Positions 1 through 61,797 of a stretch of DNA of 64,000 bases are shown here, piece by piece (position 1 is the stretch's first letter; each line of letters starts with the position of its first letter). The stretch covers positions 1-64,000 of the forward strand of contig JAAOZP010000014.1 in assembly GCA_011605725.1 (NCBI GenBank), read 5' to 3'. The notes under the pieces were generated by a model. The model did not search any database and was not told where the DNA came from. It saw only the letters and a program-made list of their open reading frames with translations. The DNA comes from Nitrososphaerota archaeon. Lineage in GTDB: Archaea; Thermoproteota; EX4484-205; JAAOZP01. A program made the translations under genes and the position numbers.

Positions 1-1032
1 ATCCTCCAGCATCAGGTCAATAATCTCTTGAGGCATTAACCCTTTACAAACCTCGCAGTCGCATTCCTCAAACCTTATCGCAGGATCCCTAAGGTCGTAG
101 GACCATCCATCCCTATAGTAGCATCCGTGCTTAGCCTCCAGAAACCATGAGAGGTTGCTGTAACTCAAACCCTTATGCTTAAGCCTCTGGCCAACACCGT
201 AAACCAGCAGCTCAAGGTCTTTTCCGATTCTCTTGGAAACCCACCTCATGCTCATTACGGCTCCGGGTAACAAATCTTCCAACAGGTTGTCCTCTAAGAG
301 TTCTCTAGCAGGCATTGCGAAGGAAGCATAGCCCATTTTAACCTGCTTCCTAACAGCCCAATCTATCTGAAGGTGGTTAGCACCCTTAACAAGGCCGATC
401 AAAGGAGTATCCAGATTGAGGAAATCGTTAGCAAAGGAGACGAGGCGTATTGTCTGAGACCAAGATAGGAACAACGGGTCGTCAACATAAGTATAATTGT
501 CCGGAACCATCGTGGCGTCAGGCCTAAGGTCTCCGATCAGCTTGAAGTAATCTTTCGTTTCAAGCTTGTCAATCAGTTCGTCGGGCATGACTGTGGAAAG
601 AAAAATCCTACCGTTAAAATTCAAGGAGTCGTGCAGACCCTTTGACGAGGCTTTCCTTAGAGTTTCTTCGTTAGTCAATAACTGCCAGAGGGGAACGAAG
701 ACCTCGGGCAATTCAACACCGTATCTCCAGAACCATGACCTCTCATCATTAACATCTACCTCAGGCACGAATCCCTGAAAACCAACCTTAGCCATAGGCC
801 TCCTGCCCAATGAGGGTGTTTGAACAGGTGTTCTCCCCGTTGTTCTAACTGGGCAATAGGGCTTGAGTCTGCAGAAGGACCTGGGATATGTTATTCCCGT
901 ATAGTGAAAACCTCTTTGGCATTGTGCTATGAGGCACATCTTGAAAGAACAGCCGCGGCAAAGCCTAGAAGCAAAGTAATAACAATCCTTACAACCCTCA
1001 TGCCCACACCACCCTCTCCTCAAGGATATCAC
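1..1032 (-). CDS. TGT (tRNA/DNA-guanine transglycosylase)-like protein with Cys-rich N-terminal domain; runs off the left edge
   Basis: Hand translation (not in ORF track): open frame from GTG 1032 (or TTG 1023) to base 1. Reads ..WCGHEGCKDC..CRGC..C..C.. then MAKVGFQGFVPEVDV..PDNYTYVDDP..ECDCEVC (CxCxxC). Paralog at 59950-60700. Confidence 0.7.
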   Translation of the reverse strand, partial: MISLRRGWCGHEGCKDCYYFASRLCRGCSFKMCLIAQCQRGFHYTGITYPRSFCRLKPYCPVRTTGRTPVQTPSLGRRPMAKVGFQGFVPEVDVNDERSWFWRYGVELPEVFVPLWQLLTNEETLRKASSKGLHDSLNFNGRIFLSTVMPDELIDKLETKDYFKLIGDLRPDATMVPDNYTYVDDPLFLSWSQTIRLVSFANDFLNLDTPLIGLVKGANHLQIDWAVRKQVKMGYASFAMPARELLEDNLLEDLLPGAVMSMRWVSKRIGKDLELLVYGVGQRLKHKGLSYSNLSWFLEAKHGCYYRDGWSYDLRDPAIRFEECDCEVCKGLMPQEIIDLMLED

Positions 1033-1107
1033 TACCTAAAACCATTTCACCGTTTAGAATTTAAAAGCTTCCCCAAACCATAGTTCTCAAGCCTGTCAAA
1101 AATGATA

Positions 1108-1161
1108 GATTGAGGCTCCAGTCCCGTAGGGGTTCGTGGGTTCAAATCCCACCCCCCCGCA
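1108..1161 (+). other. 3' half of tRNA-Leu(GAG); probable att site or tRNA remnant
   Basis: TTGAGGC anticodon loop, long variable arm CCCGTAGGG, T arm GTGGG-TTCAAAT-CCCAC and 3' end CCCCGCA. No matching 5' acceptor strand upstream. Confidence 0.75.
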
Positions 1162-1347
1162 CTTTCAGTTTCGTTTATCGTCAACTAACCTCTTCGAGAA
1201 TGGTGTAGAGAGTATTCAGGTCCTGAATACCTTCTTGGAATTGTTCTTCTACCAATTCGAATGGTAAGGGCGTCTGTCTACTTGATGTGTTACTTTTTTG
1301 GGCCTTAAACCTTATATCTGCGTCTTCTTGTATGCTGAAACAGTAGA

Positions 1348-28267: not shown

Positions 28268-28366
28268 CTTTTAAACTGTTGTAGCAGCATTATCCTGCTG
28301 TTTAGAAGAGAATGGTGACCGTAATATATATTACCGCATACTATATTATCCAAAATAGCGCGCGCT

Positions 28367-34007: not shown

Positions 34008-34103
34008 CGGGCCCGGCGGGAATTGAACCCGCAACATCTGGGTTAAAAGCCCAGCGCTCTAACCAGGCTGCTCTCCACACATGTGGATTTGAGCTACGGG
34101 CCC
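34008..34103 (-). tRNA. tRNA-Lys(TTT) with ~21-nt non-canonical D-arm intron
   Basis: GGGCCCG/CGGGCCC acceptor; CTGGG-CTTTTAA-CCCAG anticodon arm; hairpin insert at ~34068-34090. Confidence 0.9.
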
Positions 34104-40272: not shown

Positions 40273-41014
40273 CTAACCTCCCTTCCACTCCACACCTTTA
40301 ATGAAGATTCTTAACCTCTCAGGATGCTCCTTACTTAGCTCTTTAAGGTAATTGAATAACCCTATTGCGTTTTCGCTCTGAGGCTCATCGTAGAACCGGT
40401 ACATTAAGACCCAACCATTTTTCTCGGCAATGTACAGATATATATCGGAATCCTTTTTTTAAGTCTTCGAGGTCCCCTGTTTCATATCCATGCTTCACCT
40501 CAATGATCGCCTCATCCCCATCCTTTGTCACTCCTTTATAATCGAAAAATACGCATTCTTTGTTAAATTTTTTCTTCTCAGCCTCAATAAAATCATATTT
40601 ATGCTCCATCTCTGTAATCTTTCCACCCTCGCTTTCAAAGCGTATCTTCTCATAAAACATTGCTATAAAGTGTGCAGGTGCATTGGACGCCCTCCTAGGT
40701 ATTTGTTCATTTATGCCTATAATCGTTAGAGGAATATCTCCATCATCCTCATGTTTGACGAATAGCACATCCTTCAATAAAATATCCAGAACTTCGACCT
40801 CAGTGTGATATTCGAGGTAAATTATATTACGATAGTTCCCCCCTGTTTTCACGATTTCTGAAGTAACCTTCACCGACCTGCCGTCATCCCCTAGGGCTAG
40901 CCTGAACCCGATTGCGTCCCCGCTCTTAAGCGGTATTTCAAGGTTCACGATACTGCCCTTGGGCTTCTTGAAGCCAGCGTCCCCGACCTCGAAGCTCCTA
41001 GACGCTAGCGCGCG
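40273..41014 (-). pseudogene. Nuclease tip B (PD-(D/E)xK-like), 5'-truncated, +1 frameshift in an A7 run
   Basis: HFIAMFYEK..FFDYKG..IIEVKHGY; removing one A at 40454-40460 restores ..LMYRFYDEP..GVEWKGG*. Confidence 0.8.
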
Positions 41015-41017
41015 CTA
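41006..41017. repeat. Perfect 12-bp palindrome TAGCGCGCGCTA; variants at 3240, 28356, 28792, 33365, 33849, 37789, 49498, 51288, 60699
   Basis: Read directly; lies where the reading frame of tip B begins. Confidence 0.75.
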
Positions 41018-59906: not shown

Positions 59907-60700
59907 GTGAGAAGGGGCAAATGCGGGTTTAATTGCGAGAATAGCAAGAGTGAAGTTCTCCAAGTTTATACCTGAAATCGATGTCACTGATCAAAGGTCT
60001 TGGGTTTGGAGGGATGGTTTTCAAGTATCTGAGGTTTTTATGCCCCTATGGCAGTTGCTTACAAATGGAAACATTCTGGTTCAGGCTTCTAGCAAGGGTC
60101 TTCACGACTACCTTGATTTTGATGGAAGGATACTGCTTTCCACAGTTATGCCTGACGAGCTTATTGACAGGCTTGAAACCAAGAATTACTTCAGGCTGAT
60201 CAACGACTTGAAGCCGGATGCCACGATGATTCCTGACAACTACACCTATACCGATGTCCCACTCTATCAGTCCTGGTCCCAAACCATACGCCTCGTCTCG
60301 TTCGCGAACGATTTCCTTAAGCTTGACACTCCTTTGATAGGCCTGGTTAAAGGTGCTAACCTGCGTCAGATGGATTGGACCATAAGGAAGCAGGTTGAAA
60401 TGAACTATGCTTCCTTCGCAATACCAGCTAGAGAATTGTTCGAGGAGGAGAGGCTTGACGAATTCTTACCATATATCCTGTCGACTTTAAAGAGAAACTT
60501 GAGTAAGAACGGTTTCGAGTTTCTTCTCTACGGCGTTGATGCGAGACTCTAGGAGTATAAGGATATAAGCTATAGTAATCTTTCCTGGTTCCTGAGGGCG
60601 AAGCACGGGGAATACTACTGGGATGAGTTGTTCTACGACCTCAGAGACCCCATGATAAGGTTCGAGGAGTGTTATTGTGAAGCATGTGAGGGTATGATGC
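59907..60700 (+). pseudogene. Decayed paralog of the TGT-like gene at 1-1032
   Basis: Out-of-frame stub VRRGKCGFNC; in-frame TAG at 60550; homology through ECYCEAC ends at GCGCGCGCTA (60699). Confidence 0.8.
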
Positions 60701-60751
60701 GCGCGCTAAGTTCCCCGAGAACACCTACATGCAAATGGGAAAAGAGCGTAT

Positions 60752-61045
60752 GTGAAAGGTTTCTTTTCTGGGGATGGAAGTGCCTATCTGATTCATGGAG
60801 AAAGACTCTTCATACGATTTCGCTCAAAATGTGAAGAAGGGCTGGAGGGTTTACGTCAAATCCTTATGGACTTGGGTTTTCATCCTGGAAAAATTGGAAA
60901 AGATGTAGAGTCTGATACTATAACTTATCGGTTCACTATTCCAAGCAGAGAGCATGAAAGGTTTATAGATGAAATAGGAAGTTTTAAGCCTGAGCATATA
61001 AGAGTATTTGAGGAGTATAGAAGATTAAAGGGTGAGAAGGGGTGA
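60752..61045 (+). pseudogene. LAGLIDADG-like endonuclease domain fragment
   Basis: KGFFSGDGS..L..LGF..Y.F.I..RFIDEIG. Confidence 0.65.
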
Positions 61046-61184
61046 AAGGGGCTAGGGTCTGGGGATGGGGTGATGACCTAGAATTAGCTGGGGAGAATGC
61101 TCAGATGATATAAACAAACGCTGGAAAAGTACGACGGAAGAATGTTCCATTGCGATAGATGGTAGAAACCGTAGCAAAGATATA

Positions 61185-61538
61185 TTGTTTAAAATCATCG
61201 TGTACATAAACGAACCTGGGGGCGTAGAGAGCTTAGTCAACGATCTCTTCGATGCTGTATTAACCGGAGATAAGGGGAACAAGATATACTTCGTCACAGT
61301 TAACTTATATGATCATGTAGCTTCAAACAAGAGGACATATAGAAACGACCTATCATTTGTGAAGGAAGCCCATGAGAAGCAGAAACTAATTCTTATACAG
61401 AAATTTAAGAAGCATCCGGAAGTCGAGCCGTTGTTGAAAGAGGGAAGAACCTTAGAGGTGTTCTCGCCAATCGCGGTATATTGCGAACTGGAATCAGAAC
61501 GCTTCAATAAGGTAATAATGTGGATGAAAAAACTATGA
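61185..61538 (+). CDS. Hypothetical protein
   Basis: ORF in the island 3' of tRNA-Glu; no motif recognised. Confidence 0.5.
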   Translation: MFKIIVYINEPGGVESLVNDLFDAVLTGDKGNKIYFVTVNLYDHVASNKRTYRNDLSFVKEAHEKQKLILIQKFKKHPEVEPLLKEGRTLEVFSPIAVYCELESERFNKVIMWMKKL

Positions 61539-61722
61539 TCTAGATCCTCTTCTAGACCTATGCACGTTTTTGCCAACAAGTTGATTGAACTCAAGATCGC
61601 TACCCGTATTCTAGGGTATGAGCTGGGTGGCAATATCGAGGAGCTGGCGATCGAAGATTTAGATGTAACAGAAAAAGAGGTTTACCTGTGGTTAGCTTAG
61701 AATAAAAGCTTTAAGACATTAA

Positions 61723-61797
61723 TGCTCCGAGCGGGATTTGAACCCGCGCCCCGAGCTCGAGAGGCTCGTATGCTTGACCGGGCTACACCATCGGAGC
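61723..61797 (-). tRNA. tRNA-Glu(CTC)
   Basis: GCTCCGA/TCGGAGC acceptor; CGAGC-CTCTCGA-GCTCG anticodon arm. Confidence 0.95.

Follow-up and report, generated by a model that had tools for sequence, protein, structure and literature searches.

A distinct branch of the tRNA-guanine transglycosylase superfamily on a mobile three-gene cassette at archaeal tRNA genes

Archaeosine tRNA-guanine transglycosylase (TGT; ArcTGT/TgtA, 1iq8, PF01702) is encoded by a single housekeeping gene, and its product joins a barrel with a base-binding Asp to a CxCxxC...H zinc subdomain and to C-terminal C2/PUA domains. DpdA (7ui4), which inserts preQ0 into DNA in the Dpd system and in phages, places the same fold, zinc site and base-pocket Asp on mobile or accessory DNA. 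Three Asp residues are invariant in TGT and DpdA (D95, D130 and D256 in S. Montevideo DpdA), the D95A and D256A substitutions abolish exchange by DpdA, and DpdA in addition needs preQ0 and DpdB, a ParB-like ATPase (PMC10164549). The TGT fold is also found with altered catalytic equipment in QTRT2 (6fv5) and in Cap10 of the type IV cyclic-oligonucleotide-based anti-phage signalling system (CBASS; 9ntn), which provide a precedent for TGT barrels in binding or in other chemistry. Here we describe a TGT-like gene at positions 1-1032 of a 64,000-nucleotide (nt) stretch of DNA, called the window throughout, which is the first 64 kb of contig C11 (JAAOZP010000014.1) of a hot-spring Nitrososphaerota archaeon whose genome (GCA_011605725.1; G000) comprises 2.2 Mb in 20 contigs and is 93% complete. 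C-numbers denote contigs of this genome and other G-numbers related genomes; P0001 is the protein encoded at window 1-1032 and P0002 its full-length paralogue on C9 (366 amino acids, 66% identical).

The gene belongs to a tightly packed cassette of ~3 kb, in which it is followed by a gene for a LAGLIDADG nuclease and then by a gene for an orphan protein of 223-230 amino acids. Like the archaeal and bacterial proviruses, plasmids and islands that tyrosine integrases insert at tRNA genes, the cassette has a whole tRNA gene at one end and, at the other, a repeat of the tRNA 3' part that begins in the anticodon loop; unlike them, it has only three genes and no recognisable recombinase, and carries a LAGLIDADG gene instead. 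With free-standing homing genes (LAGLIDADG enzymes of the I-DmoI type; intronless homing by phage Seg and Mob) it shares a stand-alone LAGLIDADG enzyme with both catalytic Asp and the format of a small, selfish, polymorphic cassette, but it always includes the TGT-fold and orphan genes, is bordered by a tRNA-half repeat and uses several tRNA targets. We regard it, with a probability of roughly 60%, as a selfish integrative element that has its own tRNA-like arm and no integrase, and in which the TGT-like protein would serve in recognition, not in 7-deazaguanine exchange.

An earlier note on this DNA, made from its letters, had pointed to a minus-strand open frame at 1-1032 with nine cysteines in its first ~60 residues, a PDNYTYVDDP motif, a CxCxxC near its end and no visible DSGG. 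All of these are present as described: the frame is open for 344 codons, the cysteines are C9, 14, 17, 25, 28, 33, 38, 54 and 60, PDNYTYVDDP spans residues 177-186, the CxCxxC is CDCEVC at residues 324-329, and the stretch aligned with DSGG reads LSTVMPDE. The features of the gene and its promoter, by window position, are as follows.

1-1032, minus strand: TGT-fold gene, codons 1-344, an intact frame truncated where the contig ends; it opens the cassette
46-63, minus strand: CDCEVC, three of the four TGT-type structural zinc ligands; in relatives, the Pfam TGT family matches this region
145-165, minus strand: SYSNLSW, with Ser292 at the position of the TGT/DpdA nucleophile Asp (P. horikoshii D249, Zymomonas D280)
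475-504, minus strand: PDNYTYVDDP, counterpart of the TGT base-binding 'xLDxPT' strand
577-600, minus strand: LSTVMPDE, with Ser146 at the position of the TGT general acid/base Asp (DSGG); D151 is family-specific
853-1008, minus strand: nine-Cys N-terminal module (C9 to C60), presumed to bind metal (zinc or iron-sulfur)
1059-1067, minus strand: TATA-like box (minus-strand cttttaaat), 27 nt upstream of the GTG

The frame starts at a GTG (1030-1032), with an alternative TTG at 1021-1023, the position at which the gene calls of relatives begin, and lacks ~22 C-terminal codons, as estimated from P0002, among them the codon for a zinc-ligand His. Its homologues, its pattern of substitution and the TATA-like box indicate that it is a real gene. 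A word search returned 127 homologues, all from Thermoproteota/Brockarchaeota metagenome bins, and the family has 189 representatives in a library of 1.8 billion proteins. Against a copy that is 94% identical, with 34 synonymous and 15 non-synonymous differences, the ratio of non-synonymous to synonymous substitution rates (dN/dS) is 0.11, and intact cassette copies are, on this measure, under purifying selection. A matching TATA-like box precedes the copies on C9 and at the loci L005 and L020, and the position of the box suggests a leaderless or short-leader transcript.

That the gene encodes a distinct branch of the TGT superfamily, with a predicted (beta/alpha)8 barrel closest to that of archaeosine TGT, is established both by the fold of the P0002 model and by profile comparison. 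P0001 itself gives no Pfam or NCBIfam match at all and only noise in a phmmer search of the PDB; the PF01702 gathering threshold of 26.3 bits is not reached by P0002 (13.7 bits), and P0001 has no match, while some relatives pass it marginally, through the C-terminal zinc region only. A profile of 94 family sequences matches P. horikoshii ArcTGT (1iq8) with an E value of 5.9e-14 and covers the whole barrel, matching bacterial TGT and DpdA more weakly, and hhalign against four canonical Thermoproteota ArcTGTs gives a probability of 99% (E 7.8e-18). The AlphaFold (AF2) model of P0002, with a predicted local distance difference test score (pLDDT) of 95 and a predicted template modelling score (pTM) of 0.92, matches 1iq8 with a Z score of 24.8 and a root-mean-square deviation of 2.6 Å over 280 residues. 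It is followed by DpdA 7ui4 and bacterial TGT 3unt (Z 20.7 each), QTRT2 6fv5 (Z 20.1) and Cap10 9ntn (Z 14.5), against Z values of at most 12.2 for unrelated or generic triosephosphate-isomerase barrels, and Foldseek places the model in the TGT fold at E 2.3e-13. No closer kinship with QTRT2 or Cap10 is detectable, and the partners of the window protein (LAGLIDADG and orphan) and its N-terminal module differ from theirs. Given this structural match to TGT and DpdA, and homologues that are not confined to housekeeping contexts, the core of the earlier TGT/DpdA-like reading stands. Of the two likenesses that accompanied it, DUF4417 (PF14386) matches in one of 94 distant relatives (E 3.8e-4) and in none of ten others, P0001 or P0002, and DUF3795 (PF12675), invoked for the N-terminus, gives no match at E<=10 with the N-terminal 80 residues of six family members.

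Aligned with canonical enzymes, the window protein has Ser in place of both catalytic Asp and keeps the base-pocket Asp (D178) and the zinc site. In the general acid/base column (P. horikoshii D95, Zymomonas D102), Ser occupies 124 of 144 family rows; the nucleophile column of the same 144 members holds S (75), A (29), I (17), V (11) and C (4), and never Asp. D178, which aligns with ArcTGT D130 and Zymomonas TGT D156, is Asp in 143 of the 144 rows and Y182 is present in 141, so that D151, D172, D178 and Y182 are all nearly invariant across the family. The equivalences of Ser146, D178 and Ser292 agree between two independent alignments (family profile and hhalign). The fourth zinc ligand, the His of an AAHNL stretch, is visible in P0002 and lies beyond the contig end in the window copy, and the CxCxxC had been correctly taken for the TGT/DpdA zinc site. 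The protein is further unlike ArcTGT in having no C-terminal C2/PUA domains and in its extra nine-Cys module. This module is modelled at pLDDT 83-95 and shows no usable Pfam family and no usable match in the ESM Atlas; among the 66 family rows with the N-terminal domain, each of its nine Cys is kept in 42-62.

Three further features of the window lie between the promoter and the neighbouring host gene.

1085-1110, plus strand: element-side arm, consisting of a degenerate D-arm and an anticodon-stem-like stretch, ahead of the tRNA half
1108-1168, plus strand: duplicate of part of tRNA-Leu(GAG), attR-like end; it begins in the anticodon loop (T33 = 1111), takes in discriminator A1161 and closes with 7 nt of trailer
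1191-1250, minus strand: LAGLIDADG relic of 60 nt, 87% identical to C20:133-191, lying 22 nt beyond the tRNA half

Over the 58 nt of window 1108-1165, the tRNA half shows 96.6% identity with the 3' part of a complete tRNA-Leu(GAG) gene at C12 c[1851-1950]; neither ARAGORN nor Rfam calls the half, and Rfam has no tRNA in 1000-1300. C12 starts inside a LAGLIDADG gene, continues with an intact orphan gene and then reaches the whole tRNA-Leu(GAG). In four relatives (G014, G011, G006 and G003) the site is empty, with the genes for S-adenosylmethionine (SAM) synthetase, tRNA-Leu(GAG) and a glycosyltransferase contiguous within 390-585 nt, and G014 has no TGT-like gene anywhere. The glycosyltransferase flank is found in the window from 1348 onward and the SAM-synthetase flank on C12. 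Because of these empty sites, we take the window gene and C12:1-1850 to be the two ends of one ~3-kb insert, with the whole tRNA at the orphan-gene end (C12) and the 61-nt repeat at the promoter end (window 1108-1168). The earlier note had placed the gene next to a tRNA-half att site and on a mobile element; the 61-nt direct repeat and the four empty sites confirm the first of these claims, and the empty sites together with the cassette confirm the second. We rejected the reading of the half as part of a split tRNA, since the whole tRNA-Leu(GAG) stands at the other end of the insert and the relatives have one uninterrupted gene.

The element-side arm is common to three cassette copies that have different outer flanks (window, C10 and L020). 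All three read alike as far as TGAGG; beyond it, each follows its own target tRNA. The crossover must therefore lie in the anticodon loop or beside it, and the arm is part of the element. Beyond the half, the LAGLIDADG relic at 1191-1250 is the remnant of a previous cassette, which suggests that this tRNA-Leu(GAG) has been a target more than once; further relics of old cassettes lie on C12 between the orphan gene and the tRNA.

The whole tRNA-Leu(GAG) on C12, which scores 29.8 bits with Rfam, contains a 16-nt insertion in its D-loop. This insertion is found in the window's genome, G006 and G003 and not in G014 or G011, and is a non-canonical tRNA intron, polymorphic within the genus. Intron-bearing tRNAs are numerous in the genome. 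ARAGORN also calls tRNAs with 2.2-2.4-kb introns on C1 and C20; considered as cassette-bearing introns, these proved to be false calls over ordinary housekeeping genes.

The same three-gene order recurs on C9, at L005-L007 and at L020, the last two in other bins and metagenome contigs. In the C9 copy, the LAGLIDADG_3 gene (303 amino acids) begins 4 nt after the TGT-like gene, a 223-amino-acid orphan gene comes directly next, and 6 nt past it lies the 3' end of a converging tRNA. The LAGLIDADG protein is the only one of the three cassette proteins with a Pfam match (PF14528, LAGLIDADG_3, E 1e-13). Its two motifs, D108-G109 and D213-G214, are invariant in 35 relatives, and the copy belonging to the window's own element (C12:2-877) retains SDG and GDG. 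The orphan protein gives a confident model (pLDDT 92) without a clear match in the PDB, where the best Z score is 6.1, to small ferredoxin-like pieces, and Foldseek E values are 0.016 or above; in the Atlas, its template modelling scores are at most 0.33. A weak match to Lant_dehydr_C (E 0.043) was taken as noise. A complex prediction for the TGT-like and LAGLIDADG proteins scored 0.22 (mark 0.32) and counts neither way. In one relative, protein P0280 has the N-terminal Cys module fused directly to the body of the orphan protein, and is probably a cassette deletion derivative. In the library that could be searched, we found no paper that describes the cassette, none that joins Brockarchaeota with LAGLIDADG or with archaeosine, and none that joins LAGLIDADG with a transglycosylase in archaeal mobile elements.

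Further copies show that insertion is not tied to one tRNA gene. A tblastn search within the genome returned four TGT-like, six LAGLIDADG and six orphan-gene pieces, several of them at contig starts. The second TGT-like copy of the window, which the earlier note had located in another tRNA island, is indeed there, as a pseudogene in a fully decayed cassette; 25 nt separate this cassette from the tRNA-Glu(CUC) gene c[61723-61797], on the side of the tRNA 3' end.

59938-60699, plus strand: second TGT-like copy, a pseudogene without codons 1-75 and with one TAG; homology ends at a GCGCGCGC filler (60699-60706)
60710-61697, plus strand: decayed rest of the second cassette, comprising a LAGLIDADG C-terminal fragment (60710-61024) and an orphan copy (61077-61697) interrupted by a stop

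C10 and C20 together make up a further element, at tRNA-Leu(CAA), whose flanks lie ~1.1 kb apart in G009 and G007 and whose TGT-like gene body is deleted. This element and the window copy share an identical 141 nt, which explains why both contigs end at the same base. The site of the C9 cassette is empty in G008. Cassettes are thus found at tRNAs for Leu (GAG), Leu (CAA), Glu and Thr and at the intron-bearing tRNA on C9. The TGT-like gene was found in 20 of 41 related genomes, all 20 of them belonging to five genera of the same order; 15 genomes that represent other orders of the phylum yielded none. The number of TGT-like matches per genome ranges from 0 to 15, many of them with stops or truncations. 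This multi-copy, patchy, often decayed distribution within one order is the pattern of a selfish element.

Two cassette copies were inactivated by deletions whose junctions coincide exactly with an alternating GC filler, GCGCGCGC: the TGT-like/LAGLIDADG junction at 60699-60706 and the promoter/codon-295 junction at C10 (L009) 141-150. The window holds three such octamers against 0.24 expected, the other two at 28358-28365 and 41008-41015. On the minus strand at 34016-34069, Rfam, but not ARAGORN, recognises part of a tRNA (model positions 9-63, 35.2 bits), which could be another tRNA fragment or att remnant.

The family extends beyond the cassette. Paralogues of ~600 amino acids, ~30% identical, join the Cys module and the TGT-like barrel to a calcineurin-like phosphoesterase (Metallophos); they occur in G002, G003, G005, G006, G007 and G023 and at L021 and L022, with up to five copies per genome, and sit in small operons of Pfam-less genes; none was found in the window's genome. 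Distant TGT-like members of 316-408 amino acids (L052, L053) occupy the first position in other compact operons, which have three to five genes and no Pfam family, and the remodelled barrel may repeatedly take the lead in uncharacterised cassettes. The contexts of these distant members (Metallophos fusions and other operons of orphan reading frames) gave no functional clue.

We propose that the cassette is a selfish integrative element whose own tRNA-like arm would recombine with tRNA genes at or near the anticodon loop. As it carries no integrase, either its three proteins carry out integration or they recruit host recombination. The LAGLIDADG enzyme would most likely make the break, and the TGT-like protein would most likely be a base-flipping recognition subunit for tRNA-like DNA or RNA; alternatively, it may possibly be a glycosylase, perhaps using D151. 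A more specific version, which we consider unlikely in its full form, is that the three proteins together form a new kind of machinery, one that inserts DNA site-specifically into tRNA genes and needs no integrase. In it, the remodelled TGT barrel would recognise, and perhaps flip or excise, a base in an anticodon stem-loop, either that of the tRNA gene or that of the element arm, the LAGLIDADG enzyme would cut there, and the orphan protein would complete strand exchange or recruit host repair.

Several observations weigh against the proposal of an arm-bearing element without an integrase. The start of C11 is linked to the start of C12 through synteny with relatives, and no read or contig bridges the ~115-nt gap; the Logan contigs, interrupted at position 141 and again within the tRNA half, do not extend beyond position 1. 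Duplication of a tRNA half is not seen at every copy, since the C9 cassette is flanked, in a direct-repeat search, only by an 8-nt GGAAAATG repeat that is possibly due to chance, and the promoter end at L005 abuts a whole tRNA-Thr in opposite orientation. The roles given to the individual proteins are ones that we infer; neither an excised circle nor an attP junction was observed. Residues were equated through sequence and profile alignments and not through residue-level superposition, and D151 could have taken over acid/base catalysis, for example in a glycosylase activity. Finally, the genome is 93% complete, and the DNA missing from the assembly could include an integrase or preQ0 genes.

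One rival explanation survives better than the others, although we judge it improbable: the cassette would be a non-autonomous element, mobilised in trans by a host XerA-like recombinase or by a virus or plasmid integrase, and its three genes would be cargo, for instance for addiction, defence or anti-defence. Crossover in the anticodon loop together with duplication of the tRNA 3' part is reportedly the classic footprint of tyrosine integrases, and the 61-nt repeat of the window resembles it. No recombinase motif is recognisable in the orphan or TGT-like protein, as this explanation would have it, and Pfam and structure searches of the cassette proteins reveal no tyrosine or serine recombinase. 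The genome does have one XerA-like gene, the only PF00589 match found in it (407 amino acids, C17:8672-9892, L056 3673-4893), which scores 114 bits against an equivalog cut-off of 220 and has no tRNA nearby. XerA, however, normally acts at dif and not at tRNA genes, and a dedicated integrase was not found in the 93%-complete genome. Moreover, the three genes have stayed together in five genera and are under purifying selection, and the cassette has a nuclease of its own; both points count against this explanation.

Still less likely, in our view, is a free-standing homing-endonuclease cassette that spreads only by allelic, break-induced copying, with the other genes hitch-hiking and the tRNA half arising as a by-product of imprecise repair. 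Every complete copy does contain an intact two-motif LAGLIDADG gene, and presence/absence polymorphism at identical sites among relatives is what homing would produce. The 61-nt direct repeat, however, does not fit classical homing, in which the target is not duplicated. Nor can allelic homing by itself account for several different tRNA targets. The most conserved of the genes, moreover, is the TGT-like one, which is under purifying selection.

The earlier note favoured a base-exchange or 7-deazaguanine-inserting enzyme, and a DpdA-like insertase that modifies DNA or RNA on a mobile island, protecting the element or the host DNA, would accord with the fold (Z 20.7 to 7ui4), the zinc site, the base-pocket Asp and the mobile location; like DpdA, the protein plausibly acts on DNA. 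We hold the insertase to be very unlikely, because Ser is found at both catalytic Asp positions and because the genome yielded neither ArcTGT nor QueC nor QueD. DpdA cannot do without these Asp (PMC10164549), and Asp stands in the nucleophile column of 0 of 144 relatives. A search of the window's genome with PF01702 gave no match, the best QueC match was GuaA, the guanosine monophosphate (GMP) synthase, and a QueD/PTPS search gave none. The look-out for preQ0 genes, ParB or an integrase that the note had recommended thus came back empty for QueC and QueD in the genome and for ParB (DpdB) and integrase in the three-gene cassette, so that the DpdB partner and the preQ0 supply of DpdA both have no counterpart here.

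The lack of ArcTGT extends to the genus, where none of 17 genomes has a full PF01702 match. Such a match (E ~1e-70 to 1e-86) is present in the majority of the order's remaining genomes and in each of the 15 that represent other orders of the phylum. The lack of ArcTGT is not tied to the TGT-like gene, because four genomes of the same genus (G001, G013, G014 and G015; G013 and G014 are 91-92% complete) have neither gene and G021 and G022 have both, and this absence of linkage argues against a replacement role as well as a preQ0-dependent one. That the paralogue now modifies tRNA in place of a lost ArcTGT, its closest structural relative, is accordingly as remote as the insertase, the gene being multi-copy, polymorphic for empty sites and frequently a pseudogene, and its product being without the catalytic Asp and the PUA/C-terminal tRNA-binding domains in a genome where the preQ0 pathway was not found. 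The lineage may have lost archaeosine altogether, which would be unusual for archaea.

New are the empty-site proof at this locus, the assignment of the crossover to the anticodon loop, the tRNA-like arm borne by the element and the genus-wide lack of ArcTGT, joined in this genome by QueC and QueD, which were likewise not found. The gene would add to the TGT superfamily a branch that keeps the barrel and the guanine pocket and has lost the exchange chemistry, and it suggests that a tRNA-modifying fold has been reused for recognising tRNA-like nucleic acid. Such genes are easily mislabelled as TGT or DpdA and misread as evidence of 7-deazaguanine modification of DNA, here in a lineage whose searches turned up no genes for archaeosine or the preQ0 pathway. 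The hallmark of integrase-type insertion in a cassette without an integrase may reflect a new route of DNA integration, possibly programmable by the tRNA-like arm, and if the cassette's own proteins perform the integration, it could be a categorically new mobile element.

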